A program made the position numbers and the translations under genes. DNA of 24,000 bases, taken from an uncultured Alphaproteobacteria bacterium (GTDB lineage Bacteria; Pseudomonadota; Alphaproteobacteria; ATCC43930; CGMCC-115725). Of the stretch, positions 17 through 16,540 are shown piece by piece. Where the stretch lies: assembly GCA_963702925.1 (NCBI GenBank), contig OY969771.1, forward strand, positions 2,080,715 to 2,104,714, read 5' to 3'. Every line of letters begins with the position of its first letter. Position 1 is the stretch's first letter. The notes under the pieces are model-generated. The model was not told the origin of the DNA. It made no database searches and saw only the letters and a list, made by a program, of their open reading frames with translations.

Positions 17-634
17 ATGGACTGGCCGACGTTGCACACTGCGCTGCGGGAGGTTGTCGCAGGAATGCGCACGGCCTCGACGGAGGCCCTGATTCGCATC
101 TGCCGCAAAGCCCACGAGGCCGGCGACCGCGCCAAGGTCAACCTAGCGTTCGAGGCCGCGAGCAAGACGGCTACGCCCTTGCTCCTTTCGCAGGCGTTCG
201 GTCAAGCCGAGGACGAGCGCAGGGAACAGGCGCAGGAAATCCTCTTGCAGCTCTTTACTGCGATCCGCGCCGGCAAGTCGCAGCTAGCAGAGAGATTCTT
301 CGCCGCCTTTGCGAAACGGCGCTCGATTGATCTTTTCCGCCGTCGCGAGGCGCGGCTCGAGGGCAAGTTGGATCGGATCGAACCGGCCGGAGAGGCCGAC
401 CCGATCGACGAGGTACCGGGCCGGGGTGCAAGTGTCGAAGCTCGCGCTCTGCTATCGGTCGCTGTCGAGAAGCTGCCACCAAAGCTCAGGATAGCCTTCA
501 TCCAGTATCATCGCTTCGGGATGACGCAGGAGGAGGTCGCCGAACAGAACAAAGTTGATGTCCGCACGGTCCATGAATGGCTCAAGGAAGCCCGCGCCGC
601 GCTCGGACTCAAAGGAGATGGAGATGACCGCTAA
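17..634 (+). CDS. Sigma-70 family (ECF-like) RNA polymerase sigma factor
   Basis: 205-aa ORF. It has a region-2-like segment (AEDERREQAQEILLQLF...FAKRRSIDLFRRREAR) and a region-4 HTH (LPPKLRIAFIQYHRFGMTQEEVAEQNKVDVRTVHEWLKEARAAL). Its stop at 632-634 overlaps the next ORF. The ATG at 17 is close to the window edge, so the true start could lie upstream. Confidence 0.7.
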   Translation: MDWPTLHTALREVVAGMRTASTEALIRICRKAHEAGDRAKVNLAFEAASKTATPLLLSQAFGQAEDERREQAQEILLQLFTAIRAGKSQLAERFFAAFAKRRSIDLFRRREARLEGKLDRIEPAGEADPIDEVPGRGASVEARALLSVAVEKLPPKLRIAFIQYHRFGMTQEEVAEQNKVDVRTVHEWLKEARAALGLKGDGDDR

Positions 635-1259
635 GCCGAACCGCACGCCCGATCTTGATGACGTCCTTGACGAGCTCGCCAAACTCCCTGCTCCGCCAGA
701 TGCGGGGACGCTGCGCGCCTGGACGAAAGAGTACCCTGGGTTCGCGCGCGAGATCGTTGCCTTCGCCACTGACTGGTTGGCGATGGATGCAGCACGCGTG
801 GAACGGTCCGCGACCGCCGAGGACATCGACCTCGTCGTCAACCGCACGATGAGCCGCGTGCAGACTATGCTTGACGCCGCGGAGCGCCCGGAGTCGATTA
901 TCGACCTCGCCGCCGACATCCGCGCGGCTGGACACGATTTCGATTCGTTCCAGCGCTTTCTCGGCATCGACAGGTCCATGCTGGACAGCCTGATTACGCG
1001 CCTGGCGAAGCCGGCGACCATACCGGCGTTGCTCGTCTGCTTGGCGGCCGAAGCGCTGAACCGGCCGCTCGATCGGCTGCGCGAATATTTCCGGCTCCCA
1101 GCGCAACTCGCCGGCGCCCACAAGTCTCGCGGGCGTCCGGTCCCGGCACAGGTTGACTTTACGGTGCTCGTTAGACATTCAAAACTGCCTGACCCCGACA
1201 AAGACCGGTGGCTGAAAGAACCGCCGGATCCGGACCTCCAGGGCAAACCGCATGGATAG
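624..1259 (+). CDS. Hypothetical protein, possible XRE-like HTH (candidate partner or substrate of the downstream ImmA-type peptidase domain, or an anti-sigma-like factor)
   Basis: The ORF track starts at 555, but AAGGAG (612-617) lies 6 nt before the ATG at 624, and ATG 618 is an alternative. The segment DIRAAGHDFDSFQRFLGIDRSMLDSLITRLAKPATIPALLVCLAAEALNRPLDRL resembles an XRE-type HTH pattern. The ORF overlaps both neighbours (sigma stop 632-634; helicase ATG 1252 versus its own stop 1257-1259). Confidence 0.55.
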   Translation: MTAKPNRTPDLDDVLDELAKLPAPPDAGTLRAWTKEYPGFAREIVAFATDWLAMDAARVERSATAEDIDLVVNRTMSRVQTMLDAAERPESIIDLAADIRAAGHDFDSFQRFLGIDRSMLDSLITRLAKPATIPALLVCLAAEALNRPLDRLREYFRLPAQLAGAHKSRGRPVPAQVDFTVLVRHSKLPDPDKDRWLKEPPDPDLQGKPHG

Positions 1260-4200
1260 CTTCGGCACCGTCCGTAGGCTCGCCCGCGAAAAGCATGAGG
1301 CGATGAAGGCTCGTGCGTCAGGCGACGGCACCGCAGCGGCACTCCTGGCTCAGGCGCGCACCACGACGAAAGCGGCGATCCACGGAGTGCCACCCGAACA
1401 TCCGCTGCTGGCCGGCGGCGACGGCGCGCTCCATAGGACCGGGCCGACGCCGTCGATCTACATCTCGGATGCGCTGGCTCCGGACCAGGCCGCCTACGTC
1501 GAGGCGCACGAATTCGGCCATCTCTGGATCGAGACACCGACCGAACCGGCGGTGGCGCCCTGCAACTCGGATCCATCGACGCCGGAAGAAAACACGCCAC
1601 TCGGACTACGTCGGGTAGAGGCCTACAGCCCGGAGGAACTGCGCGAGCGGTACGCCAACGTTTTCGGACGAGAGTTTCTTCTTCCGTGTTCGGAAGCAAA
1701 GCGACTATTCGGTTTGGGCAAATCGGCGAAGCAAATCGCAACCGACATCGGCGTCCCCATCGGCCTCGTCAACCAGCAGCTCGCGGCCGCGCTGCTGCTA
1801 CCCGAACCGTCCACCGAAGAGAAGGCTGTGGAGCGCGAGCGTCCAGGGCTCGACAAATCCCAGAAGATGGCCGCCGAACACGAAGGTTCGCCGCTGCTCG
1901 TCGAGGCGGGGCCTGGCACGGGCAAGACTCGCGCTCTAATCGCGCGGATCGAATATCTGCTTGCCAAGAACGTCCCGGCACCGAGCATTCTCGTCCTGAC
2001 TTTCTCGAACAAAGCTGCGAGGGAGATCAGAGAGCGCGTTGCGGGAAGCGTACCCGGAGCGGTGCCGGAAATCTGGGCGGGAACATTCCACGCCTTTGGC
2101 CTCGAACTCCTCCGCAAATACGGCCACCTCGACGGCATAGCCGAGCCCGTAAGGTTGCTCGATCAGGCCGACCAACTTGCACTGCTCGAACGCGAACTAC
2201 CGCGCCTCGGACTCGACCACTACTTGCGCCTTCACGAACCGCTTTTGGAACTCCGCAACATTATCGGCGCTATTTCGCGCGCGAAGGACGAAGTGTTCTC
2301 GCCGTCGGCATATGCGGACGCCGCCCGGCGCATGCTCTCGAAAGCTGGTTCCGATGAGGAACTCGTTCTGCGAGCCGAGAAAGCCGCGGAGGTCGGGCGG
2401 GTATATGCCCACTACGACGCTTGCCTTCGCGCCGAAGGCATCGTCGATTTTGCCGACCTCATCAACCAGCCCATCGAGATCCTGCGGAAGCATCCTGACA
2501 TCCGCGACGAATTGTGCGGCCAGTACACGCACATCCTGGTCGACGAATACCAGGACGTAAACCGCGCGAGCGCGCTGCTGCTCAAGGAGCTTGCCGGCGA
2601 GGGCGAGCACCTGTGGGTCGTCGGTGACGCACGGCAATCCATTTACCGGTTCAGAGGAGCCGCGCCTTCAAACACGACCGAGTTCGAGAAGGATTATCCA
2701 AAGGGCAAGCGTCTGCCGCTAGCCGTCAACTATCGGTCGAGAAAACAGATTGTCGATATGTTCGGAACCTACGCCGCCGGCATGAGCGTCGGCGGCGGCC
2801 GGAACCACTCACTTCGGGCGCACCACGGCGCAGGCACCAATCCGATCGACTTCAGCGTCGCGTCCGACCGTAACGCGGAGATCGCGGGAATCGCGGCCGT
2901 GATCCAGCGGCGGCGCTTGGCAGGCTGCGCCTACCGCGAACAGGCCGTACTTTGCCGCTCGCACTCCAATCTCCAGAAGATAGCGACAGGGCTCGAAGCT
3001 GTCGGCATACCCGTGCTGTACCTGGGCGACCTCTTCGAGCGGCCAGAAGTTCGAGACCTCCTTTCGCTCCTGTCGTTCGCATCCGAACGCCATCGCGGCG
3101 GCCTCATGAGGGTGGCAACGCTCCCGCGATGGCGCACACCGCTCGCCGACGTTCGGACGTTTCTTGCGCACGCCGCCGAGACTGAGAAGACGCCGCTCGC
3201 CGCCCTCGCGGCCGTGGAGAACCTCGACGACCTTTCGCTGACGGGGAGGAGTGCGCTCGCGCAGCTGCGCTCCGACCTCGATGGTGTCGGCTTCAAGACC
3301 GGGCCCGGGCAGTTCCTGTGCGACGTGCTGTTCGAGCGTGGTCTTGTCCGTGACTATCTCTCCGGCAACACAGCCGCTGACTGCCAGCGGCGGCTCGCCA
3401 TTCATCAGTTCCTTCAATTCGCTATTGAATACGACCGCGCGGGCGAAGGCGACCCAAAGCGCCGGCTGCTTGGCTGGGTCCGGCGGCTGGAGGTGTTCGG
3501 CGATGAGCGCGCACTGCGCGAACCACCGGCAGCTGTCGAAGGTATCGACGCGGTGCGGCTCATGACCGTTCACGCTAGTAAAGGTCTGGAGTTCGAGACC
3601 GTGCATCTGCCGACGCTTGGGAAAGGCATCTTCCCTCTGAAGCGGCACGGCGTGACCTGTCCTCCACCGGACGGAATGCTTCTTACGACGGCAGAGGATG
3701 ATCATAACGAGGAGGAAGAATGCCTCTTCTTCGTCGCGCTGTCGCGTGCTCGTGGCCACCTGTCGCTCTCGCGAGCGCAGCGCTATTCCGACAGCCAGCG
3801 CTCGAATCCTTCTCCCGCGCTTGAGGCGATCGCTGCACATCTCCCCCGGGCGCCGGACTCAGACCCTACATGGACGGCGCGGCTTCCCACGCCGACCGCA
3901 GGCGGGAGCCGCCTCGACCTCAAGCGCGCAGCGCGTGAGCACGACGGGCGGGACATTGAACTCTACATCGGTTGCCCACGCCGCTATCTCTATCAGGCGA
4001 TGCTAGGGCTGAGCGGCTCGCGCGAGGATAACGGCTACGTCCGGTTCCATGGCGTTCTCTACCGCGTGTTGGGTTGGATGGCCGAACAGACCGGCACCGT
4101 GACGACCGACGCGCTCAAAGCGGAAACGGACGCGCGCTGGGCCGAGACCGGTCCGACGGACCATCCGCTGCAGCCGCTATACCGCGCCTCCGCGCAGAAG

Positions 4201-4620
4201 ATCCTCGATCAGGCTAACGCGCGGCCGCGCAAGGGGATCCGGTTTGGAGAGACGCTGACCGCCACCATCGCCGGCCACACCATCAGCCTTTCGCTCGATG
4301 AGATCCAGAAGGACGGCCGTGGCTTCGTGATCCGTCGGCTCCGGACCGGGAAGGTGCCGAAGAAGCAGGACCACCGCGTCCTGCATGCGCTCATGGCGGA
4401 GGCCGGGAGGCAGGCGTTCGGAACAGGCGGCAAATTCGAAATCCGCTATCTCTCTTCCGACGACGCGGTGCCGATCTCCTTCGCCCGCGTCATGGCCGAC
4501 CGCCTCGAAGAGACCAAGGCCGTCATCGCAGGGCTCGCGGCCGGTGAATACCCGCCGATTCCGTCCGATAACTGCCCGCGCTGCCCGCACTACTTCATCT
4601 GCCAGGCCATTCCCGAGTGA
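1252..4620 (+). CDS. Three-domain fusion: N-terminal ImmA/IrrE (M78) metallopeptidase-like domain, UvrD/Rep-type SF1 helicase, and C-terminal Cas4/AddB-like PD-(D/E)xK nuclease with a Cys4 (Fe-S) cluster
   Basis: 1122 aa. Peptidase motifs: HEFGH (nt 1507-1521) followed by ERYANVFGREFLLP. Helicase motifs: GPGTGKT (1909-1929), TFHAFG, ILVDEYQDVN, VVGDARQSIYRFRGA, VNYRSRKQIV, TVHASKGLEFETVHLP, FFVALSRARGHL. Nuclease signatures: IGCPRRYLY (Cys codon 3973-3975), SLDEIQKD...IRRLRTGK, and CPRCPHYFIC (4573-4602). Confidence 0.9.
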   Translation: MDSFGTVRRLAREKHEAMKARASGDGTAAALLAQARTTTKAAIHGVPPEHPLLAGGDGALHRTGPTPSIYISDALAPDQAAYVEAHEFGHLWIETPTEPAVAPCNSDPSTPEENTPLGLRRVEAYSPEELRERYANVFGREFLLPCSEAKRLFGLGKSAKQIATDIGVPIGLVNQQLAAALLLPEPSTEEKAVERERPGLDKSQKMAAEHEGSPLLVEAGPGTGKTRALIARIEYLLAKNVPAPSILVLTFSNKAAREIRERVAGSVPGAVPEIWAGTFHAFGLELLRKYGHLDGIAEPVRLLDQADQLALLERELPRLGLDHYLRLHEPLLELRNIIGAISRAKDEVFSPSAYADAARRMLSKAGSDEELVLRAEKAAEVGRVYAHYDACLRAEGIVDFADLINQPIEILRKHPDIRDELCGQYTHILVDEYQDVNRASALLLKELAGEGEHLWVVGDARQSIYRFRGAAPSNTTEFEKDYPKGKRLPLAVNYRSRKQIVDMFGTYAAGMSVGGGRNHSLRAHHGAGTNPIDFSVASDRNAEIAGIAAVIQRRRLAGCAYREQAVLCRSHSNLQKIATGLEAVGIPVLYLGDLFERPEVRDLLSLLSFASERHRGGLMRVATLPRWRTPLADVRTFLAHAAETEKTPLAALAAVENLDDLSLTGRSALAQLRSDLDGVGFKTGPGQFLCDVLFERGLVRDYLSGNTAADCQRRLAIHQFLQFAIEYDRAGEGDPKRRLLGWVRRLEVFGDERALREPPAAVEGIDAVRLMTVHASKGLEFETVHLPTLGKGIFPLKRHGVTCPPPDGMLLTTAEDDHNEEEECLFFVALSRARGHLSLSRAQRYSDSQRSNPSPALEAIAAHLPRAPDSDPTWTARLPTPTAGGSRLDLKRAAREHDGRDIELYIGCPRRYLYQAMLGLSGSREDNGYVRFHGVLYRVLGWMAEQTGTVTTDALKAETDARWAETGPTDHPLQPLYRASAQKILDQANARPRKGIRFGETLTATIAGHTISLSLDEIQKDGRGFVIRRLRTGKVPKKQDHRVLHALMAEAGRQAFGTGGKFEIRYLSSDDAVPISFARVMADRLEETKAVIAGLAAGEYPPIPSDNCPRCPHYFICQAIPE

Positions 4621-4715
4621 CGCAGAAGCGACTTCCGCTTTTCCGGAGACGCCGCGACTAACCCTTCAGAGCAGCTGACCGATCGCCGGCCGGCACCCAA
4701 GAGAAGGGTTCTCAA

Positions 4716-5231
4716 ATGCGACCAATCGATGTCTTCGTCCAAGGCGGGGAAATCGCCGAAATTCTGGTCGGGCGCGCAGCCCCGATCCACTCGCTGGCCG
4801 AGGTGCTGGCCAATCTCGAACGTCCCGTTCCCCAGGGAGAAGGGATGCTGATCTTCGTCGAAGACATGCACGCGCCCGTCGATCCGGAGACGACCGTCGA
4901 GGAACTGCTGCCGCTGTGCGTCGACGAAGAGGCGATCATCGTGCCGCTGCGGCTCCACGTTTCGCGCTGCCGGCACGTCGAAGTGTCCGTCCGCTTCAAC
5001 GGCGAGCACGTAAAGCGTCGCTTCCCGCCTGGTGCCACCATCGGCCGTGTCCACCACTGGGCGGCGCGCCGCGCCTTCGGCCTGTCGCCCCGCGACGCGG
5101 CCGAGCACGTCCTGCAGATCCAGGGCACCCAGAAGCGCCCCGACCGTGACGTGCACATCGGGACGCTCACTTCCGGCACGACCTGTTCCATCGCGTTCGA
5201 CCTGGTGCCGCGCAAGCGGGTGGAGGGCTGA
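4716..5231 (+). CDS. Tandem beta-grasp ubiquitin-like protein (multiubiquitin / BilA-like) with a free C-terminal glycine
   Basis: 171 aa, with two halves of about 80 aa each, sized for beta-grasp domains. The protein ends ...LVPRKRVEG-stop (Gly codon 5226-5228). It is followed 2 nt later by the E2-like gene. Its position and size match the first gene of Ubl-E2-JAB-E1 operons. Confidence 0.7.
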
Positions 5232-5233
5232 AG

Positions 5234-5707
5234 ATGTCCACCGGCATCGGTCCAGACGAGGCGGTGTTCCGCAGCCATCTCGGCGGGGGCAGCTTCCTGC
5301 TCGGCACCACCGCCGGACGCTGGCGGCTGGTCTCGGTCGCCTGGCCGCACGCCGTGTTCGGCGTGCGTGCCGCGGACGGGATCGAGTACGGCCTCCGGTT
5401 TGAGTGCCGCGACTATCCGCACACGCCGGCCACGGCGCGGCCATGGGACATCGAACGCGACGCTCCCCTCGCGCCCGAACGCTGGCCGACCGGCAGGAGC
5501 CGCCTGCCGCTGGCGTTCAACCCGAGCTGGAAGAACGGTTCGTGCCTCTACCTGCCTTGCGACAGGCAGTCGATCGAGGGCCACGCGAACTGGCATCACG
5601 AACATCCGAGCCTGATCTGGGATCCCGCCCTCGGCATCGTCCATTACCTGCGGATCGTCCACGATCTCCTCAACTCAGGCGACTACGGGGGACGCCGTGC
5701 AGCATGA
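5234..5707 (+). CDS. Prokaryotic E2/UBC-like ubiquitin-conjugating enzyme homologue (BilB-like)
   Basis: 157 aa, tightly packed between the Ubl and JAB genes. Candidate catalytic cysteines lie in [18 protein letters not shown]. The assignment rests mainly on size and operon position plus this Cys-loop, so it is less certain than the JAB and E1 calls. Confidence 0.6.
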
Positions 5708-6179
5708 TCCGTTACTGCGCATCGCCCGGCCGCTGTGGCGCGAGATGACTACCGAGCTCCACCGCCGCACTGAAGGCCGCCACGAGTCCGGCGCGTTCCT
5801 GCTTGGGCACAAGGCGGCCGACGGGCGCACCGCGCGCGCGCTCGTCTATTACGACGATCTCGACCCGCTCGCCTACGACACGGGCATCTGCGTGTTGCAC
5901 GCGGACGCCTTCTCACGGTTGTGGGACATCTGCGGGGAACGCGATTTGTCTGTGGTCGCCGATGCCCACGTCCACGGCGGCCGCGCCGGCCAGAGCCCAT
6001 CGGACCGCGAAAATCCGATGATCGCGTGCCCCGGCCATCTCGCGCTCATCCTTCCTCTGATGGCTCGGCCTCCCGTGCGCCGGTGGGCAGTCGGCATCTA
6101 CGAATATCTCGGCGAGCACCGGTGGCGGCCGCACGGCGGCTGCTGTGGATCGCGCATTCTCAAGATAGAGGACGAATGA
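5697..6179 (+). CDS. JAB/JAMM (MPN+) metalloprotease, deconjugating enzyme (BilC-like)
   Basis: 160 aa. It has the upstream Glu in HESGAFLLG and a JAMM-like metal site, [13 protein letters not shown] (H-x-H-x6-S-x2-D). The GTG start at 5697 overlaps the E2 stop by 11 nt. The stop at 6177-6179 overlaps the E1 ATG at 6176. Confidence 0.85.
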
Positions 6180-7534
6180 TGAACGACTTGGAAGCGGTGT
6201 CGGATGCGCTCAACCGTCTCGTCAAGATCGCGCTCGACACGGGCGAGGCGTCGAGCGTCGAGGAGGCGGAGCAGATCTTCAGAAACTACCGGATGCAGAT
6301 CGTCGTCGGCGCCGACGTCATGCACAACGCCGTGCTGCAGGCGACGTTGCTGACGGCGGTCAACTGCGCTGCACGCAGCTTCCTGGGCGGCGTGACCGTC
6401 GTCGGAGCGTTGGGTGTTCTGCGCGTGATGCTGCCTCCGTTCCTCGACCTCGAAACCGCCGTCGCTGGCCTCGGTGCGCGGAGGACGGAGGTGCCGGATC
6501 CGGACCTGCCGATGCTGGTGATCGGCGATGTCGATGTCGCTCTATTGAAGCCGCTCGCAATCCGGGCGACGTTTTCTCAGTGGTGCGGCGGCATCGTTCC
6601 GGCCGCGAGCAACGTACGTCTAGCCGAGATTGGCGCGTTCACTCCAGCAGGCGTGCTCGCTGGCGCGCTGGGCGTTTGCGAGATATTCCAGCGCGTGCGC
6701 GGAGGTGCGCCGATGGCGTGCCGGAGGGCCGCCGGTCTGGACCTCTGGGATCCGCGGCGGGACTGGCTGCGCGGCGAAAGCGCGCCGCCTCCAGAGCGCC
6801 TTCCCGCCGCTGCGTGGCTCGTCGGGATGGGCAATCTCGGTCAGGCCTACCTCTGGACGCTCGCGCTTCTTCCCTACGGCGAAGAAGCCGCCAACCTTGT
6901 CTTGCAGGACACCGATATTCTCGCGCCATCCAACCTCAGCACGTCGTTGCTGACCACGCGTGAAAGGATGAAACGGCGCAAGACGCGGGAGATGGCTGCG
7001 TGGGCCGAAACGCGCGGCTTCAGGACGTCCATAGTGGAGCGGATTTTCGCAGCCGACTTCAGGGTCGGTGAACGCGAGCCTGCAGTGGCGCTCATTGGCG
7101 TCGACAACGCGCTCGCCCGGCAGTCGATTGAAGACGTAGGATTCGCGCGCATCATTGAGGCCGGTCTCGGCCGTGGACCGCAGGATTTTCTCGGCATCGA
7201 CCTGCACACGTTCCCCGCGTCGAAGACGGCGCGGGAAACTTGGCCGGAGACAGGCGCGTCGGACGCCGACATCGCGCAACCGGCCTACCGCGCGATACTC
7301 GAACGGACTGGGGATCGTTGCGGGACCGTGCGCCTTGCCGGCCGTTCCGTCGGCGCACCGTTCGTCGGCGCGGCAGCTGCGGCCCTCGCCATCGCTGAGT
7401 TGATGAGGCTCTGTCTCGGAGGAACGCGCTACGAAATGGTTTCGTGCCACCTGCGCGATCTGCAAGGACGCATCATCGTCCCCAATGGACAGGAGGCACC
7501 TTTCAACCCGGGCAGCATCCAAGTCGCCGCGTAG
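6176..7534 (+). CDS. E1-like ThiF/MoeB-family adenylyltransferase (BilD-like) with a long N-terminal, possibly degenerate Rossmann-like domain
   Basis: The ORF track gives 5921-7534, but the first 85 codons are R/P-rich and overlap the JAB gene, so the ATGATG at 6176 (coupled to the JAB stop) is the likely start. That gives 452 aa. Motifs: nucleotide-binding loop LVGMGNLGQ, LVLQDTD, IGVDNALARQ, and a candidate catalytic Cys in GDRCGT. Confidence 0.85.
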   Translation: MMNDLEAVSDALNRLVKIALDTGEASSVEEAEQIFRNYRMQIVVGADVMHNAVLQATLLTAVNCAARSFLGGVTVVGALGVLRVMLPPFLDLETAVAGLGARRTEVPDPDLPMLVIGDVDVALLKPLAIRATFSQWCGGIVPAASNVRLAEIGAFTPAGVLAGALGVCEIFQRVRGGAPMACRRAAGLDLWDPRRDWLRGESAPPPERLPAAAWLVGMGNLGQAYLWTLALLPYGEEAANLVLQDTDILAPSNLSTSLLTTRERMKRRKTREMAAWAETRGFRTSIVERIFAADFRVGEREPAVALIGVDNALARQSIEDVGFARIIEAGLGRGPQDFLGIDLHTFPASKTARETWPETGASDADIAQPAYRAILERTGDRCGTVRLAGRSVGAPFVGAAAAALAIAELMRLCLGGTRYEMVSCHLRDLQGRIIVPNGQEAPFNPGSIQVAA

Positions 7535-7543
7535 CGGCGACTT
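7521..7543. terminator. Perfect 10-bp inverted repeat (AAGTCGCCGC-GTA-GCGGCGACTT) spanning the E1 stop codon; possible bidirectional terminator between convergent genes, or a protein-binding palindrome
   Basis: Read directly from the sequence. The stop TAG (7532-7534) sits in the loop/stem junction. No U-tract follows on either strand, so intrinsic terminator function is uncertain. A tandem GATTAAG repeat follows at 7549-7555 and 7557-7563. Confidence 0.35.
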
Positions 7544-7600
7544 GGTGAGATTAAGCGATTAAGTCGGCACGGCCCATATCGCGCTTGTGTGGTCGGGATT

Positions 7601-8914
7601 TCAGTCAGCTCGCATGCCCCCCCTAGGAAGCCATGCTTTGTGTCCGATTATTCGGCGTGGCGGCGGACTCCCCAGCAGCGCGAGGCCGTCCCGATAAAGA
7701 GCGTACGTGTATTCGGATGCCAGCAAAGTTAGCCCAGCGTCCTCACCGCCAATTGCGAAGCCGACAGGATCGGTCCGCGGAAGCTCGAGTGAATCTGGGA
7801 CGTTGTCTCTCCCGTTCCGGACGATCGCACTCAAAGCGTTGAGAAACCGCTCGGCGGCCTTCTCCTCCATCACGAACCATCCGGCGAATTCGTTTCCGTC
7901 CCGCCGCAGCCTGTGTGTTCCCCAGAGGCGAGGCCACCATCTCGGGTGCCAGAATTCGTCCAACCAGTCTGGCGAGTCGCTGAAGGGCCATCCCGATTCC
8001 ATGCAGGCCAGGAATATTCGGCCAGCATAGGGAATCTGTATGAAGCTCACCGGTGCCGTATCGTTTGGACGCTCTCCTCCGTCGCGAACCCAATCGATCC
8101 ATCGCGCGACGCTAGGCGCGTTCATCAAAGAAAAGTTAGACCGATGCGCGGAAAGCGCGAGCGATGTTGGCGTTGCCTCAGGACCTGGCATCGGATCCGC
8201 CTGTGTCGGAGGCCGGCGCTTGCCACGCGGTTTGGGAATCCGCGTCTCAGCGACGTGCAGGAAGGCACCCGCTGCTCCCGGTCTGGAGCCAAACGCTATC
8301 GAGTATCCGTGAACGACCTTGCCGTGAGGAGAGATCGCGGCGAGATGAGGCTTCACCTGCCGCAGATATTTGTGCTTCGCTTGGCGGCTGATGCCGGCGG
8401 ACGTGACATTTGCTGCAAATGACCCACGCGCTTCGGCCAGCACCACGCCGTGTCCCGATACGGCACCATCACCGTAAATGAAATCGGCGTGCGGCGCGAG
8501 CGAGCGTGATAGGCAGGACGCGTTGTCCCTCCAAGTGTAGCCCAGCGCGTTCACGGGCAAGTCAGTGACGCCGGTGCCAATGCGTCCAGCAAAGGACGTC
8601 CGCTCGGCATCGACGAGAGAATGGACATACCGTGTTAGCGCGAAGGTAGTGCCGTCGTCGACCAACCATTCCACTTCCGTCAGCGCGCTGTCGCCCCACC
8701 GCGTCAGCATTTCCGACGGCGCGTCTCGGAGCGTTGCCGTCCTTGCGATCGAGGCAGCGAGCGCGCCCGGTCCGAATATCAGTGTCGTACCTGCATTGGG
8801 TGGCTTGAAGCCCGCGGAGATGGGGCTTGGACTGTGTCGATGCTGCGTATGGCCGGTGACAGAGACCATCTTGTCACTGCGCCAGATCGCGGGAGCAGAC
8901 AGGACGGTGCTCAC
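7601..8914 (-). CDS. Hypothetical protein, 437 aa (possible PD-(D/E)xK-like core in the N-terminal half; Trp-rich C-terminal domain)
   Basis: GTG start at 8914 is preceded by AAGGAG with a 6-nt spacer. The amino-acid composition looks like a real protein. The segment FAGRIGTGVTDLPVNALGYTW...APHADFIYGDG...VVLAEARGSF...KHKYLRQVKP is reminiscent of restriction-endonuclease-fold cores (D...E-x-K with K replaced by R). The C-terminus contains DWLDEFWHPRWWPRLWG. I recognise no confident family. Confidence 0.7.
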   Translation of the reverse strand: MSTVLSAPAIWRSDKMVSVTGHTQHRHSPSPISAGFKPPNAGTTLIFGPGALAASIARTATLRDAPSEMLTRWGDSALTEVEWLVDDGTTFALTRYVHSLVDAERTSFAGRIGTGVTDLPVNALGYTWRDNASCLSRSLAPHADFIYGDGAVSGHGVVLAEARGSFAANVTSAGISRQAKHKYLRQVKPHLAAISPHGKVVHGYSIAFGSRPGAAGAFLHVAETRIPKPRGKRRPPTQADPMPGPEATPTSLALSAHRSNFSLMNAPSVARWIDWVRDGGERPNDTAPVSFIQIPYAGRIFLACMESGWPFSDSPDWLDEFWHPRWWPRLWGTHRLRRDGNEFAGWFVMEEKAAERFLNALSAIVRNGRDNVPDSLELPRTDPVGFAIGGEDAGLTLLASEYTYALYRDGLALLGSPPPRRIIGHKAWLPRGGMRAD

Positions 8915-8950: not shown

Positions 8951-9487
8951 TTATGAGGCATCGCAAGACGGGAGGATCGACGCGAGATCGGGCTCGACGT
9001 CGAGACCATATTGATATGCCAGAGCCGCGATGTGCGTGCCAAACGTCGCCCGCAATTCGCCCAGGGCCACGAAGAAGGACGGGCTGCCCTCTTCGTCGTC
9101 TGAATGCCGCGGGCCGTGCCATCGCATGAGGTTGCGGAAATCTGGCGCCGGCTCTTCGAGGAATCTTCGACACGCGGCACGCATGGCGCGAACGGAACCC
9201 GCGGCCCGCGACGTTTCGGGCAAAGCCTGCAAGGCCTTTGTCAGCACCTCACGAATCTGGAGCACCGAGGAAGTGACCTGGGAGACGACCTCAAGGTGAT
9301 GGGGAACGAATAGAACGCGCCGATCTTCCAAGACCGTTAGAAGGCCTCTGACGATTTCGCGCTCGTCGGCGGGCGGTGTCCACTGAACGCCGAAGAACGG
9401 CAGCGAGAATCCGGTCAATCGGTTCACCGGCGATTTCGCCGCGATCTGTCCCTTCTTGGTGATATTTCGCGATCTGGCCACCTTCAC
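8951..9487 (-). CDS. Hypothetical protein, about 176-178 aa
   Basis: The ORF lies 36 nt upstream of the 437-aa gene on the same strand. GGGGAGG abuts the GTG at 9487 and lies 6 nt before the in-frame GTG at 9481, so 9481 is the more likely start. No recognisable motif. Confidence 0.65.
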   Translation of the reverse strand: MKVARSRNITKKGQIAAKSPVNRLTGFSLPFFGVQWTPPADEREIVRGLLTVLEDRRVLFVPHHLEVVSQVTSSVLQIREVLTKALQALPETSRAAGSVRAMRAACRRFLEEPAPDFRNLMRWHGPRHSDDEEGSPSFFVALGELRATFGTHIAALAYQYGLDVEPDLASILPSCDAS

Positions 9488-9546
9488 CCTCCCCGACCTT
9501 TGTTATACGCCGCATCCGACTGGAATTGATGCTCCCCAATCGGCAC

Positions 9547-10461
9547 TCACCGGAGTAGCCGCATGAGCGCGTCTGATTGCTCGGCGAACTTTAGGGCGTT
9601 GGTCTTCCGAAGCCGTTCCAGGTTTTGCAGCTTCCAGCGCAGGCCGGGGAGCTGCTCCAGATGCGGCACGCCCAGCAGCGGCCATTCGGGCTTTGCGGCG
9701 ACTAGCGACAGCAGAAACCGGCGTTCGTCAGCGCCCAGACCTTGCTGGAGCTCGCGCATCATCCGGTCGCGCGCCGCCAGGAGCGCATCGAGCTCGACGG
9801 GCTCGGCGGTCATGCCTGTGAAATTGTGCTCGAACTCCTGGCGGATGTCGCGCAGTGATGGAAACAGGACCTCGTGGACCGGCCGGTTATGACTCGCGAG
9901 GTAGACGACGAACGCGCGGCGAATGCCGATGGTGATTCCCTCATGCGCGAAGAGCTGCAGGACATCGAACAGATCGCGGGGATGTTGGCGGTCCATCGCT
10001 GCCACCAGCTTGCCGCCATACACGTCCTCGAGCGACACGACTGGGATCTCGATATCCGCCTGCAGCGTCTCGCGCGCAGTCTGTGTCAGCGACGCCCTGC
10101 GCACCGGAAGGACGGTGCCGCGCATGACGAAGTTGACCTCGATCTTGACCTCGATGTTGCCCCGCCGCACCAGCAGCTTGGTCTCGCCGGCCGCCGCGGC
10201 GGCCGGCGCATGGGTCTGGAAGCCTTGCTTCTGCAGGCGTGCCGCGGACTGGCGAATGGCCTCGTTGATGCGCTGGAGCGCCTGCTCGCGCGGCAGCGTG
10301 TGGTCGGGAAACACCAGGTCGAGGTCGACCGAGAGCCGCGGCATGTCGCGCACGAAGAGATTGATCGCCGTGCCGCCCTTGAGCGCGAACGTGTCGTCGA
10401 CGAGCACGAGCGGCGCGACGCGCGTCAGCAGCCGTGCGCTGTCTAGATAGACCTGGTTCAT
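9547..10461 (-). CDS. abiEii: AbiEii/AbiGii-family nucleotidyltransferase toxin (type IV toxin-antitoxin / abortive infection)
   Basis: 304 aa. It carries the nucleotidyltransferase-fold signature ALKGGTAINLF...LSVDLDLVF and the overall DUF1814-like pattern (VSLEDVYGGKLVAAMDRQHPRDLFDV). An ATGA start/stop overlap with the upstream antitoxin gene lies at 10458-10461. Confidence 0.9.
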   Translation of the reverse strand: MNQVYLDSARLLTRVAPLVLVDDTFALKGGTAINLFVRDMPRLSVDLDLVFPDHTLPREQALQRINEAIRQSAARLQKQGFQTHAPAAAAAGETKLLVRRGNIEVKIEVNFVMRGTVLPVRRASLTQTARETLQADIEIPVVSLEDVYGGKLVAAMDRQHPRDLFDVLQLFAHEGITIGIRRAFVVYLASHNRPVHEVLFPSLRDIRQEFEHNFTGMTAEPVELDALLAARDRMMRELQQGLGADERRFLLSLVAAKPEWPLLGVPHLEQLPGLRWKLQNLERLRKTNALKFAEQSDALMRLLR

Positions 10462-11195
10462 GGCTTCAGCACCAGGAGCCCGTCACCGGAACGGGACACC
10501 CACGGCCGGTCGCTGCCTTTAGGCAACTGAGACGGATCGAGCTTGCCAGCCCAGGGCTGGGAGAGTTCGCGGCCGAGCTGCAGGCATAGGCGCACGGTCT
10601 TGATGCTGGTGCAGCGCTTGAGCAGGTCGCGCAGCACGTCGGCGCGCAGACTATAGGTGCTCTCGACCAGCTCGCGCGCTTCCTGCAGCGGCTGCCGGAC
10701 GCCGACTTCGCTCAACACCTCCAGCAATGCGCGTTCCGGCGCCGAGACGAGCGGACCGCCCTTGCGGTTCTCGAAGGGCCGGACGTGAAGCAGCGCGTCC
10801 GGCTCCTCCTTGAAGAGCCGCTTGCGATGGTACTCGGCCGGGAAGCGCTGGGTGAACCACTCCGGAAGGTGCCCGGCCTTCCAGCCGTAAAGATCTAGGA
10901 CAGCCCGTTGCGACAGGTACTGGCGTATGCCATGCCAGTCGAGCGCGGACTTGCCGCCAACGTGCAATCCGTCGAAGCTCCGCTGCAGCAGAGCGAGGCT
11001 CGGGTGCATGGCGGGCGGATCGTTCGGCCGGCAATAGACGCCGCGCGACAGCCGTTGCAGCCAGCCGGCACGGACATAGTGGACGGCGAGGTCGGCCGAT
11101 ATCCCCAGGGCGGCGAGGTCCTCGGAGGTCAGCGGCGTCCCCGGCGCCAGGCGGGTATAAAGCCGATTTAGCTTGTTTCTGTGAGTCGTAGGCAT
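10458..11195 (-). CDS. abiEi: AbiEi-family antitoxin / transcriptional autoregulator (N-terminal wHTH)
   Basis: The ORF track begins at 11252, but I prefer Met-20 (ATG at 11195). The N-terminus MPTTHRNKLNRLYTRLAPGTPLTSEDLAALGISADLAVHYVRAGWLQRLSRGVYCRP matches the AbiEi wHTH pattern. The stretch 11196-11252 is AT-richer and promoter-like. Confidence 0.85.
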   Translation of the reverse strand: MPTTHRNKLNRLYTRLAPGTPLTSEDLAALGISADLAVHYVRAGWLQRLSRGVYCRPNDPPAMHPSLALLQRSFDGLHVGGKSALDWHGIRQYLSQRAVLDLYGWKAGHLPEWFTQRFPAEYHRKRLFKEEPDALLHVRPFENRKGGPLVSAPERALLEVLSEVGVRQPLQEARELVESTYSLRADVLRDLLKRCTSIKTVRLCLQLGRELSQPWAGKLDPSQLPKGSDRPWVSRSGDGLLVLKP

Positions 11196-11204
11196 ACTAC
11201 GACT
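11184..11204. promoter_or_regulatory. Inverted repeat IR1, AGTCGTAG-gcata-CTACGACT, centred on the abiEi start codon; candidate AbiEi operator
   Basis: Perfect 8-bp arms read directly from the sequence. It shares the TCGTAG/CTACGA half-site with IR2. Confidence 0.5.
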
Positions 11205-11231
11205 ATAACAACAATTCGAAGGCGTGGCCAA
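11202..11231 (-). promoter_or_regulatory. Putative sigma-70-type promoter for abiEi-abiEii (-35 TTGGCC, 18-nt spacer, -10 TATAGT) predicting a leaderless or near-leaderless mRNA
   Basis: The minus strand reads TTGGCC-N18-TATAGT-CGTAGT-ATG. There is no Shine-Dalgarno before the ATG at 11195. This is pattern-based only. Confidence 0.3.
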
Positions 11232-11250
11232 GTTTGGGTTCGGCACCACC

Positions 11251-11269
11251 ATCGTAGCTCAGCTACGAT
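11251..11269. promoter_or_regulatory. Inverted repeat IR2, ATCGTAGC-tca-GCTACGAT; second candidate AbiEi operator
   Basis: Perfect 8-bp arms, with the same TCGTAG core as IR1, whose nearest arm lies 46 bp away. AbiEi proteins are known to autorepress through paired inverted repeats in their promoter. Confidence 0.45.
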
Positions 11270-11499: not shown

Positions 11500-12765
11500 T
11501 CACGCACCATTGCCGCCGCGGCGCCTCTGCGAACGTGCGAGCTGTATCGCGAGATGACCAACCGCTAGCTTCACGTAGCGCTGGACCATCTTTGGACTTT
11601 TCCATCCCCCGAGCACCATGAGCGAAGGGGCATCGACACCGTCCATGACCGCCCAGCTCGCCCAATGATGGCGCCAATCGTGAATTCTAAACCAGTTGAT
11701 TTTCGCAACGAGTTCCGGGCGGCAGGTCTTATGGCAGCTTGCGCAGGAGAGCGCGTAGTCGCTCAGCTCCTCCCGTTCGCCGGCGGGACGAACAACCGCG
11801 AGCTCGACGCACGCGTTCGCCGGGCCTCCTGGTGCCGCGCTGAGCTTGGCGCCGCAATGCAGACAGGTTTTTTGGTCCTTCAGAAGCTTCTTGATCGTGA
11901 ACCGCCGTAGCGCCGTGGCGTGCGCCTTCCGAATACCCGAACCGTCGCGCCCCTCACCATGCGAGGCGCTGCGGCGATCGACATAAGGCGTTCCATCTGG
12001 CTTGACGAACACCGGCCCGCTGGTTTGAAGATTATGCATCTTCTCCAACGTCGCGCGGACTTCCGGGTGCATCGGCGCGACCCGCATGTCGCCGTTCTTC
12101 GTCTTGCGGAAGGTCACTGTGTCGCGACTTAAGCTGACGTCCGGCCATTGCAGACGAAGCGCTTCGGATTCGCGGCACCCTTGAAGGCAAAGCGTCAGCG
12201 CAATGGGCTTCGCGTGGTCGGCATATTCCGCCAGAAGCCCGTCTCGGTCCTCGGACTCCAGGAAGATCTCCCGAACGGCTCCGTCGGACGGCAACACGAA
12301 CTTCGGCAAGGTGAGCTTGAACTTCTCCGCCGTGCGCACGAGCGGCGGCGAAAACATCGCGTACCAGCGCCGCACCGTGGCCGGCGCCGGATCGTCGAGC
12401 TTCTCGGCGACGAACTTATCCCAGTCTTCGGGCTCGAAGGAGTCGACCGGCTTCTCTTCGAAGAACTTTCCGAGACGCAGCAGCTTCTGGCGGTCCTGGT
12501 TCCCGAGTGGCGTACTTCCTTTTGCCTTTGCGTCCACGTAGTCGGCGGCGGCCGTCGCGAAGCCGGGGATGGCCTTTGATTTGGCGGGCTTTTCGCCGCG
12601 GAGCAGCTGCTCGCTGATCTCGGCGCAGCGGCGGGTATAAATTACCTGCGCGCTTGTCTTGTCGCGGCAGCCCGTAGTCTCTCTAATCCGGACGCTCGTT
12701 TTCCCAACGCGGATCGTGCCAACGATCCAGAAGACGGCACCCCGTTTGGTGAGCTTGGAGGACAT
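11500..12765 (-). CDS. Tyrosine recombinase / phage-type integrase with a CxxC...CxxC insertion in the catalytic domain
   Basis: 421 aa. It has an arm-binding-like N-terminus (KRGAVFWIVGTIRVGKTSVRIRETTG). Catalytic elements: LQGCRESEALRLQWPDV (Arg), HDWRHHWAS (HxxR), GGWKSPKMVQRYVKL (Tyr). An extra segment, CLHCGAKLS...CASCHKTC, lies between the K-hairpin and HxxR. Confidence 0.9.
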   Translation of the reverse strand: MSSKLTKRGAVFWIVGTIRVGKTSVRIRETTGCRDKTSAQVIYTRRCAEISEQLLRGEKPAKSKAIPGFATAAADYVDAKAKGSTPLGNQDRQKLLRLGKFFEEKPVDSFEPEDWDKFVAEKLDDPAPATVRRWYAMFSPPLVRTAEKFKLTLPKFVLPSDGAVREIFLESEDRDGLLAEYADHAKPIALTLCLQGCRESEALRLQWPDVSLSRDTVTFRKTKNGDMRVAPMHPEVRATLEKMHNLQTSGPVFVKPDGTPYVDRRSASHGEGRDGSGIRKAHATALRRFTIKKLLKDQKTCLHCGAKLSAAPGGPANACVELAVVRPAGEREELSDYALSCASCHKTCRPELVAKINWFRIHDWRHHWASWAVMDGVDAPSLMVLGGWKSPKMVQRYVKLAVGHLAIQLARSQRRRGGNGA

Positions 12766-13562: not shown

Positions 13563-14096
13563 TCACCGTCGCGTCGCGTGGCTGAAGGAGCGGAATCCGC
13601 TTGCGATCGTGGGTGCAAAATCGTTGAACCATTTCAGCAGCGCTGCCTTCTCGTGGCCCGTCCGCTCTTCCAAGATGAGCGCTTCGAGGGCCGCTTGCGC
13701 CTCCATGACCGTTTCCGAGACGCCGCAAAGGATGTGGCAGCATCGAGAATTCGCCAATCCGAAGTCGTTGACGACATAGAAGCCGAAAGTGAAGAGCGTG
13801 GAATTGCCTTTGGCGCAGCCGCTGATGTAGGCGGTCATCAGGTCTCGCCCTTCCGGATAGCAAAGAAGCAGGTAGCGACGTTGGCTTGCGCCTTGGAATT
13901 TCGTCCAGAACCGCCGCAACGGCGTCGCTTCCGCAGAAGGCTCGGCCGCGGATGCCGGGTCAGGCGCGACAGTCCGAGGTGAAATGGATGCCGCGGCCGC
14001 TTCGAGGTCCGGCACACGCTCACAGGCGTCGCGCCGGGTTGACATGCGCTCACTCGGATCAAGCTCGACTGGGTACTGGGGAATGCCGGCGGTCAT
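13563..14096 (-). CDS. Hypothetical protein, about 177 aa
   Basis: The ORF extends to 14213, but that upstream part is R/P-rich. The ATG at 14096 has GGAG about 8 nt upstream. The C-terminal two-thirds look protein-like (RRYLLLCYPEGRDLMTAYISGCAKGNSTLFTFGFYVVNDFGLANSRCCHILCG...). No family recognised. Confidence 0.55.
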   Translation of the reverse strand: MTAGIPQYPVELDPSERMSTRRDACERVPDLEAAAASISPRTVAPDPASAAEPSAEATPLRRFWTKFQGASQRRYLLLCYPEGRDLMTAYISGCAKGNSTLFTFGFYVVNDFGLANSRCCHILCGVSETVMEAQAALEALILEERTGHEKAALLKWFNDFAPTIASGFRSFSHATRR

Positions 14097-14170
14097 GGTG
14101 CTGTCTCCAAAAAGCCTTGGGTCGGGGTCCAGCCGGATTTGGGTTCGACGCCGCCCGAGCGGCTCTTGAA

Positions 14171-14747
14171 GTGGCACCTCGTGCGGCACCCCAAATTGTC
14201 GCGGGGGGCCCATCCTTCCTCGATCGGCGACCCAGAGGCACCCGGCTGTGCGGTGCCTCTTGGCACCTGGATCCTCACGGGGGCGGAGGGAGCGGCCCTC
14301 GGGCGCCTTGCCGGCGATGGGCGCCAGTTCCCCCCCCCCCTGGGCGGCGCCTCGAGCCCTCCGGGCAGGAGACCGCGCTCTGCCGCCTGCCGGCGACGGG
14401 AAGACTCGAGGTGCCTGGCACCCGCGACCGCCCGCAGCCTGATCGCCATCGGTCGCGTTTGTCCGCTAATCTTCGGATCGGGGCGCTTTCTCTGTGTCTG
14501 CGCAGAGTTCCAAGCGCCGCCGCTTCGCGACGTGCGTGGGCAACTCCGCAGCGCCGCGCGGGGTGCCGTCCGGCGCTTTTGCCGCAGGCGGGAGGCCTCG
14601 GAACCGCGTGGATCGCGGGGGGTCGGTCTGAGGCCCGATAAGTGGCGATTATCGGCCCCGAGACAGGGCGGCACCTCGTTGGCGCCTCGTTGGCGTCGCG
14701 CCAGGTGCCGCTTGCGGCGACCCAGGGGCGCCGCGACAGGGTGCCGC
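14171..14747. repeat. Cluster of REP-like palindromes built on a GGCACC/GGTGCC core in a long non-coding spacer
   Basis: There are 11 GGCACC/GGTGCC hexamers, starting at 14173, 14185, 14237, 14252, 14262, 14410, 14417, 14562, 14670, 14704 and 14740. Hairpin AGAGGCACC-N9-GGTGCCTCT lies at 14234-14260. Palindrome GGTGCC-T-GGCACC lies at 14410-14422. Hairpin GCGGCACCT...AGGTGCCGC at 14668-14711 encloses a perfect tandem CCTCGTTGGCG x2 (14674-14695). Confidence 0.55.
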
Positions 14748-14761
14748 ATTCGGGGGCCGCT

Positions 14762-16309: not shown

Positions 16310-16540
16310 CGTATCGCTCCGCCTCAAACCGCCGCCTGCGCGCGGCACGCGGCACGCGGCAGTCTGCGGCAATCACGAGAAGCCGAACAGAGATTTCGCT
16401 TCGCACACGAAAGCGGGCGTCTTTACCGGATTTCGAGCGGTTTTCGTCCTTGATGCGAAACGCTGGAGTTCGGCCAAAGCAGGGCGCGATTCATGGCCTC
16501 GAGGCTTCGTCGCGCGGCACCGCACGACTATGATCATGGC

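Follow-up and report, generated by a model that had tools for sequence, protein, structure and literature searches.

The regulatory pair CapH and CapP controls adjacent immune operons (Lau et al., 2022) and is found with 15% of the operons of the CEHH/6C Bil type (later Type II Bil) and 31% of the Bub operons, and in 24 cyclic oligonucleotide-based antiphage signalling systems (CBASS) a sigma-70-family factor is encoded alongside capH and capP. Two other sets of controllers, CapK + CapS and CapW/BrxR, are thought to couple DNA damage to the expression of immune operons. Type I Bil, of the gene order bilA-bilB-bilC-bilD (Millman, 2022; Hör et al., 2023/2024), was shown in published work to protect Escherichia coli by itself and functions elsewhere as a four-gene operon; its known target is a phage tail fibre protein, to which the ubiquitin-like protein (Ubl) is conjugated. 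In this study, we analyzed a 24,000-nt stretch of DNA from an uncultured Alphaproteobacteria bacterium (contig OY969771.1; hereafter the window, meaning this whole stretch), in which a BilABCD cassette is preceded on the same strand by three further genes, encoding a sigma factor, a protein designated p2, and an M78-UvrD-Cas4-like fusion protein. This triad probably constitutes a dedicated three-gene sensor and regulator that would switch Bil on upon the appearance of abnormal DNA, and it is best read not as a nuclease effector but as a sigma-plus-helicase variant of CapH/CapP control. The features of the unit are as follows.

1 to 634 (open reading frame (ORF) called from 17), + strand: gene 1, sigma-70-family factor of the extracytoplasmic function (ECF) type (Sigma70_r4_2, TIGR02937)
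624 to 1259, + strand: gene 2, p2, 211 aa, putative XRE/CapH-like helix-turn-helix (HTH) core, no Pfam family (AlphaFold2 model, profiles)
1252 to 4620, + strand: gene 3, M78-UvrD-Cas4-like fusion, 1122 aa (Pfam domain map)
4633 to 4661, + strand: P_bil, bipartite promoter-like motif, conserved across related loci
4660 to 4710, + strand: inverted repeat AACCCTTC (4660-4667) / GAAGGGTT (4703-4710), arms kept in alphaproteobacterial loci
4716 to 5231, + strand: gene 4, BilA, ubiquitin-like protein, 171 aa (PADLOC BilA)
5234 to 5707, + strand: gene 5, BilB, E2-like enzyme (PADLOC BilB, Pfam DUF7665/BilB-like)
5697 to 6179, + strand: gene 6, BilC, JAB/JAMM deubiquitinase-type peptidase (PADLOC BilC)
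6176 to 7534, + strand: gene 7, BilD, E1-like adenylating enzyme (PADLOC BilD, weak ThiF)
7516 to 7547, + strand: strong hairpin over the bilD stop codon (−24.3 kcal/mol, z −4.3)

The strongest argument for a regulatory role of the triad came from the genes that occupy its position in other Bil loci. Metagenomes were scanned with a BilD profile, and 49 of the best 80 loci had at least 600 nt upstream of bilA. The fusion gene was immediately upstream of bilA in 38 of these 49 (78%), a proportion that applies to the clade around this BilD, the 80 loci being those nearest to it, rather than to Bil systems in general. In place of the triad, two loci (L053 and L071) carried a STAS-HATPase protein and a STAS-like-HTH protein, which is the CapK/CapS architecture, whereas another (L061) carried a divergent HTH_3 gene and a Peptidase_M78 gene, which is the CapH/CapP architecture. 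Divergent XRE genes filled the slot in L082 and L103, and L058 retained the sigma and p2 genes with no helicase fusion. Because the slot of the triad is thus held elsewhere by described controllers of adjacent immune operons, the triad itself was considered to be regulatory. CapK + CapS and CapW/BrxR share with it the position upstream of Bil or Bub operons, but they belong to unrelated families and act by phosphorylation or by binding of single-stranded DNA (ssDNA) rather than by proteolysis and a sigma factor.

To define how firmly the triad is linked to the cassette, a single genome of each species was searched with a profile built from p2 homologues, and 11 loci were obtained, namely those of Afipia, Methylocystis (two), Bradyrhizobium, Reyranella, Pseudolabrys, two alphaproteobacterial metagenome-assembled genomes, the gammaproteobacterium Candidatus Foliamicus, and Lysobacter (two). 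In all 11 loci, which span Alpha- and Gammaproteobacteria, the order of the seven genes was identical and a gap of approximately 85-110 nt preceded bilA. The same order was present on all four contigs reached via helicase homologues (approximately 50% identity), and the flanks of these contigs were unrelated to one another (Type I restriction-modification genes with integrases; a relaxase, type IV secretion system genes and AbiE; others). In addition, the Mantel correlations between the distance matrices of the triad and of Bil (r = 0.88-0.95) equalled those within each module. This concordant divergence, taken together with the differing flanks, indicated one co-inherited mobile unit rather than chance neighbours. 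The functional coupling of the two modules suggested in the first-pass annotation is accordingly strongly supported by a gene order kept in 15 of 15 loci found via gene 2 or gene 3, as well as by distant copies on plasmids.

These plasmid copies were found by a tblastn search with the fusion protein, which returned 77 records with at least 80% coverage and 31-41% identity, and 15 of the loci were inspected. Bil lay downstream of the triad in eight of them. A Type II Bub operon, consisting of multiubiquitin, DUF6791-ThiF (an E2-E1 fusion) and DUF6527, followed directly in four (Leptolyngbya, Acinetobacter, Klebsiella, and Cereibacter), was displaced by an IS66 insertion in a Pseudomonas plasmid, and diverged from the triad in a Robbsia plasmid (L109). 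The remaining locus, on an Aquincola plasmid (L110), showed two small ORFs of 109 and 116 aa without any family match at 9218-10055, which may be other cargo or a remnant. The triad was also located with Type II Bub on the chromosome of E. coli CP61_Sichuan (L112, 1333151-1346536), between fimH and cueO and flanked by insertion sequences (IS); a locus of this type was present in 1-3 of 5426 complete E. coli genomes. In total, among 31 loci found via the helicase or gene 2 without reference to Bil, the triad stood by Bil in 23 and by Type II Bub in seven, so that it adjoined a ubiquitin-like conjugation system in 30 of 31. Numerous Type II Bub operons are accompanied by it, among them those on 45 Acinetobacter plasmids, one Klebsiella plasmid and one E. 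coli chromosome, and full-length homology was found between the p2 proteins of loci linked to Bil and to Bub (hhalign probability 99.2%). In four loci the unit was naturally disrupted, namely by an IS with a DDE transposase within the helicase gene (L006, 12442-14005), by an IS66 between the fusion gene and bubA (L022, 10300-16849), by the absence of the helicase fusion beside sigma and p2 (L058, as above), and by a frameshift in the helicase gene (L007).

In the gap before bilA, a conserved bipartite motif was identified. Alignment of the gaps gave the consensus TTCCGGTTTT-N11-GCGAYT(AA), which in the window takes the form TTCCGCTTTT-N11-GCGACT (4633-4659), with a −35-like box TTCCGCTTTT at 4633-4642 and a −10-like box GCGACTAA at 4654-4661. 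The number of chance matches to the exact pattern expected in the window was 0. Among the 11 p2 loci (approximately 230 kb), the exact pattern was found in the gap of 10 and upstream of the sigma gene in four, and in no other place; the alignment showed a one-base variant in the gap of the 11th. A weight matrix derived from the gap sites was then applied to each of the 11 loci; the best site outside the gap lay just upstream of the sigma gene in eight, both Lysobacter loci included, and the corresponding site ranked third in L003, L007 and L009. Alignment of 10 gap and six upstream-of-sigma sequences revealed the invariant columns CCG-TT-T and CGA-T at fixed spacing. The same promoter-like motif hence precedes both the sigma gene and the target operon in related loci, while the sigma-side copy belonging to this locus falls outside the window, no identical p2 protein is on record, and the only contig returned in a search for that region begins within the helicase gene.

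The two copies also co-varied in divergent loci: the motif read TTTCCGAT...TTGTA in L017, CCCATTTTT...CGCTxTCTT in L023, and TTCCGATTC...GCGACT in L026 and L027, and in the Bub-linked loci a related motif (TTACCG-N-ATCGATTAA) preceded bubA. An unbiased comparison of 28-mers between the gap and the region upstream of the sigma gene was noisy and exceeded every control in just 21 of 53 loci, owing to the lack of conservation in the spacer; even so, the best shared word in most Bil-linked loci was the motif itself. Autoregulated sigma factors typically have a matching promoter motif before their own gene. The asymmetry of the motif, the −35/−10-like spacing of its boxes, its position approximately 55 nt before the start codon, and the presence of the sigma-side copy together fit an autoregulated ECF-type promoter, and we infer that the motifs depend on the encoded sigma factor. 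The earlier statement that the gap contains no obvious promoter therefore does not hold, although no sigma-70 consensus is present. Of the two directions of coupling proposed in the first-pass annotation, control of the Ubl cassette by the sigma/XRE/ImmA switch is the one favoured by the paired motifs before sigma and bilA and by the known regulators in the same slot.

As previously described, the seven ORFs between 17 and 7534 are co-directional on the + strand, and the only real gap is the 95 nt at 4621-4715; all other junctions overlap (sigma/p2; p2/fusion by 8 nt; bilB/bilC by 11 nt; bilC/bilD by 4 nt) or are 2 nt apart (bilA/bilB). The earlier delimitation of the unit at 17-7543 included all seven genes, but it missed the beginning of gene 1, which starts to the left of 17 and is cut by the window edge. 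Since its frame is open back to base 2 and its homologues (230-294 aa) have approximately 50 more N-terminal residues than the ORF called from 17, gene 1 and its own promoter extend past the left edge. Homologues of 256-260 aa likewise carry an N-terminal extension. No relevant sigma-70 promoter or intrinsic terminator was predicted in the unit, the gap included. The proposed single operon is thus only half correct: read-through of the gap is possible, but the gap also holds a promoter-like site, and an operon that contains an internal, putatively sigma-dependent promoter is the most fitting description of the unit.

The fusion protein comprises an M78 peptidase domain (residues ~54-177; Peptidase_M78, Pfam E = 5.6e-7), a UvrD-type superfamily 1 (SF1) helicase (200-860), and a Cas4/AdnAB-like PD-(D/E)XK domain (900-1122; PDDEXK_1). 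The M78 domain carries HEFGH at residues 86-90 as its invariant HExxH motif, and the best real PDB matches of its profile were CapP (7t5t, E = 1.5e-5) and then IrrE (E = 2e-3). The helicase motifs start approximately 20 residues past this domain, at the position of the GAF sensor domain of CapP and IrrE; no GAF domain was detected in the fusion, and the interval between ~177 and 200 leaves no space for one. Across 113 homologues, Walker A (GPGTGKT), DEYQD, the later SF1 motifs and HExxH are all kept. The four Cys of the Cas4/AddB type are likewise invariant (C908...C1108-x2-C1111-x5-C1117), while the catalytic (D/E)xK is replaced by RRLRTG at residues 1028-1033. Every member of the family alignment has RRxRTG at the catalytic position. 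The family profile aligns this segment to VVDLKTG of AdnA; in PDB entry 6ppj, the Asp of this motif (residue 934) is replaced by Ala, and D934A is the nuclease-dead mutant of AdnA. At the same position, the plasmid relatives have RRVRTG, QRLRTG, TRMRSG or RRVKTG, and no canonical (D/E)xK was found among those inspected.

Hence, the C-terminal domain is predicted to be nuclease-dead and to bind DNA without cutting. Because the catalytic (D/E)xK is lost, the suggestion that Bil is wired to a nuclease-helicase effector was disfavoured. The fusion resembles AdnAB, AddAB, RecBCD and Cas4 in having an SF1 UvrD-like motor followed by a PD-(D/E)XK domain with four Cys (C...CxxCx5C) that aligns to the AdnA nuclease. 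It differs from these complexes in that both the catalytic Asp and Lys are Arg, in that a single polypeptide carries an N-terminal peptidase, and in that no partner subunit is encoded. The closest PADLOC matches of the fusion were defence helicases (GajB and a helicase associated with defence-associated reverse transcriptases (DRT)), the GajB models matching the helicase core only. No GajA-like gene was found among the seven genes with Pfam or PADLOC, indicating that the system is not Gabija.

Gene 1 matched TIGR02937 (sigma70-ECF) at residues 60-196 with 47.9 bits against a cutoff of 42.9, and Sigma70_r4_2 of Pfam with E = 1.7e-9; region 2 was weakly seen by Pfam in one homologue. These matches fit an ECF factor with sigma-70 regions 2 and 4 only. 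For p2, no match was obtained in Pfam, NCBIfam, PADLOC or a first PDB profile search. Its family, which no Pfam model covers, comprises 1361 representatives at E ≤ 1e-3 and 622 at 1e-10 in a library clustered at 50%, all of about 200-220 aa. In the AlphaFold2 model (predicted local distance difference test score 90, from an alignment of 115 sequences), residues 95-157 form a five-helix bundle. Foldseek matches of the model were mostly XRE HTH proteins (DdrO, SinR, Cro, and the N-terminal domain of CapH; every E > 0.6), and the core superposed on the N-terminal domain of CapH (7t5u) with a TM-score of 0.70 and a root-mean-square deviation of 2.6 Å. A deeper profile matched SinR and CapH at residues 99-157 (E = 0.06-0.2), and faint Pfam HTH matches covered the same region in two homologues. 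These lines of evidence, each weak individually, converge on a tentative assignment of p2 as an XRE/CapH-like HTH protein. By analogy, p2 is predicted to be a protease substrate that acts as a repressor, an anti-sigma factor or both.

The products of genes 4-7 gave full-length PADLOC matches to BilA (E = 9.7e-54), BilB (2.3e-60), BilC (5.1e-61) and BilD (1.8e-163). Pfam identified DUF7665/BilB-like in BilB (E = 3.8e-62) and matched ThiF to BilD weakly. BilA ends in ...RVEG, with Gly as its final residue, and Pfam BilA_UBL_2 was found on the L012 copy of bilA and on its homologues in L013-L016; this family and the terminal Gly point to a Ubl with two beta-grasp domains. The translation of BilC shows the JAMM motif HVH-x7-S-x2-D, and the order Ubl, E2, JAB peptidase, E1 is that of Type I Bil. 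Judged by these features, genes 4-7 encode a canonical ubiquitin-like anti-phage system of the Type I BilABCD kind. The likeness to the characterized Collimonas system extends to the bilA-bilB-bilC-bilD order, the terminal Gly and the JAMM motif (Millman, 2022; Hör et al., 2023/2024). The Collimonas system is a four-gene operon, whereas here, and in the 38 related metagenomic loci mentioned above, a three-gene module precedes it.

We propose the following circuit for the triad. In the rest state, p2 would hold the sigma factor inactive or block its promoters. The fusion would bind or move on aberrant DNA (ssDNA, ends, or phage or damaged DNA) by means of its UvrD motor and its nuclease-dead four-Cys domain, and this event would activate the N-terminal CapP/IrrE-type metallopeptidase, which in turn would cleave p2. 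The freed sigma factor would then direct RNA polymerase to two matching promoters, that of its own gene, giving positive feedback, and that in the gap, giving expression of bilABCD. Cleavage of p2 and DNA as the trigger would both follow the precedents of CapH/CapP, IrrE/DdrO and ImmA/ImmR.

The locus shares with these three systems a HExxH M78 peptidase beside a putative XRE-type HTH protein, here upstream of an immune operon, and with CapH/CapP in particular the modelled, putative HTH core of p2 that superposes on the CapH N-terminal domain. Several differences set it apart. CapP is about 290 aa, whereas the 1122-aa fusion lacks GAF and joins M78 to UvrD and a predicted dead Cas4-like domain; p2, at 211 aa, differs from CapH in having its putative HTH in the middle of the protein without a Pfam HTH match. 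The triad always has a dedicated ECF-type sigma factor, and, unlike the divergently encoded CapH/CapP pair, it is co-directional with the regulated operon in the window and nearly all relatives, being divergent in the Robbsia locus only. Control would consequently be sigma release as much as de-repression. The arrangement is also reminiscent of ECF sigma/anti-sigma pairs governed by regulated proteolysis, given that the sigma gene overlaps its partner gene, that a matching motif stands before the sigma gene, and that a protease is encoded in the operon; the partner, however, is putatively XRE-like rather than a known anti-sigma domain and is predicted to be cytoplasmic, and the protease is of the ImmA/IrrE type and fused to a helicase.

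Several points weigh against this reading. Other Cap regulators are promiscuous, whereas the triad stands by a Ubl system in 30 of 31 loci, which suggests a link beyond transcription. For a simple switch, an ATP-driven helicase of 1122 aa would be an expensive component, and the term nuclease-dead is deduced from motif loss alone. The HTH assignment of p2 relies on matches that are individually non-significant (Foldseek and profile E values as given above). The motif could be an operator instead of a promoter, although it is asymmetric with −35/−10-like spacing. No motif was recognized in the divergent intergenic region of the Robbsia plasmid. Finally, in the Bub-linked loci L019, L024 and L025 the second copy is located within the sigma gene, at its 3' end, approximately 210 nt upstream of p2, which implies that Bub-linked units are wired differently, with p2 and the fusion induced and the sigma factor not.

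Beyond the circuit proposed above, the triad may belong to an unrecognized class of controllers, in which a translocating helicase and a dead Cas4-like end-binding domain form an ATP-dependent sensor that triggers the CapP-like protease in cis, whereby a private sigma factor is set free, with cross-talk to Bil and Bub beyond transcription. Such cross-talk may include (de-)modification of triad proteins by the Ubl as feedback, or marking of a DNA/protein complex by the helicase for Ubl targeting. We regard this extended version as speculative and rather improbable.

The alternative that survives best is that the triad is a second defence arm, in which the fusion would itself attack phage DNA or intermediates of replication, through unwinding, stalling or the displacement of proteins, as a composite with Bil under shared sigma-dependent expression. 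All of its SF1 helicase motifs are intact, the defence helicases GajB and the DRT-associated helicase are its closest PADLOC matches, and pairing with ubiquitin-like systems in 30 of 31 loci is tighter than a generic regulator would give. Nevertheless, the catalytic nuclease motif is gone in every member, pure regulators fill the same position in other Bil loci, and L058 has the sigma factor and p2 without the fusion; moreover, published work shows that Bil alone protects E. coli. On balance, we consider a second arm unlikely.

Distinctly less probable is the reverse direction of coupling, in which the Ubl machinery would modify the triad, with BilA conjugated to the fusion, p2 or the sigma factor and removed by BilC, by analogy with type II CBASS, where Cap2 and Cap3 regulate the CD-NTase. 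This precedent and the nearly exclusive pairing of the triad with two Ubl-conjugation systems, Bil and Bub, lend it some appeal. However, the known Type I Bil target is the phage tail fibre protein, Bil operons work without the triad, and the motif pairs and the interchange in the slot are explained without conjugation. The alternative offered in the first-pass annotation, of two independent systems that happen to be neighbours in a defence island, is refuted even though the window is an island of defence and mobile-element genes (AbiE, integrases and a C5 methylase downstream) and Bil works elsewhere as a four-gene operon, for this is contradicted by the order and the ~85-110 nt gap kept in every close relative amid differing flanks, by the concordant divergence of both modules, by the promoter motif common to both, and by an association that persists across Bil and Bub.

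With control by a sensor and regulator as the preferred reading, the locus bears on the question of how bacterial ubiquitin-like defence senses infection and avoids needless expression. The triad offers a testable circuit leading from a sensor helicase through a protease, an XRE-like protein and a private sigma factor to a defined promoter. It would extend the CapH/CapP principle to sigma-factor control and illustrate how the scaffold of a helicase-nuclease can be converted to sensing, and the natural E. coli copy (L112) would be a convenient experimental model. CapH/CapP by Bil and Bub operons and capH, capP and a sigma factor by CBASS have already been published, and the new element is the sigma-plus-helicase variant. 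In the searchable full texts, neither a helicase nor a sigma factor was found to be mentioned next to Bil or Bub; the present loci may be counted in published tables as CapH+CapP.

RNA structures and repeats in and around the gap were also inspected. The weak hairpin reported earlier at 4624-4642 exists, with a 7-bp stem including one G-U pair, and its 3' arm coincides with the −35-like box; its folding energy (−9.3 kcal/mol, z −1.4) was no better than that of shuffles, and it was rejected as a terminator, being neither significant nor conserved. A known RNA element was not found in the gap with Rfam. The leader of bilA is enclosed by the inverted repeat AACCCTTC / GAAGGGTT, which also spans the Shine-Dalgarno sequence and folds in the window with −19.1 kcal/mol (z −1.5). 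A conserved RNA structure in this leader was rejected, given an RNAalifold consensus of just −0.9 kcal/mol with five pairs and the single-sequence z of −1.5. The repeat could mask translation on read-through transcripts, although the statistics are weak, and in Lysobacter it is swapped for another complementary pair, CTTGTTGTG / CACAAGAG. Just 3' of the −10-like box of the sigma-side copy lies a palindrome, TAGGCGCCTA (L002, L006, L008 and L009, ~9195-9215), which is absent from the bilA copy and is a candidate operator for the putative HTH protein. The triad/Bub intergenic region of the Robbsia plasmid (L109, 4536-4686) has a nested palindrome, CTTGCCACGG...TTTAGAGTAAACACTCTAAA...CGGTGGCAAG, in the place of the motif.

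At the other end of the unit, the strong palindrome placed after the last gene in the earlier reading was recovered as the hairpin at 7516-7547 (−24.3 kcal/mol, z −4.3), but it overlaps the bilD stop codon rather than following it. It has no T-tract and was not called by the terminator scan; it is probably the 3' end or a stabilizer of the unit and not a canonical intrinsic terminator.

Downstream of Bil, the − strand encodes a 437-aa protein without a family (7601-8914), a DUF6650 protein (8951-9487), an AbiEii/AbiEi toxin-antitoxin pair (9547-11252) and a tyrosine recombinase (11500-12765); DUF6650 also occurs 3' of bilD on contig L012, which represents the same locus. Further on, a GC-rich stretch (~0.71) at 14000-16400 of the window extends over and past the 3' half of the gene for a C-5 cytosine methylase (14762-16372, − strand), and two adjoining, unusually large integrase-domain ORFs of 735 and 739 aa lie on the + strand within 18497-22854. 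The GC-rich stretch and the twin integrase-domain ORFs suggest an integrative mobile element.

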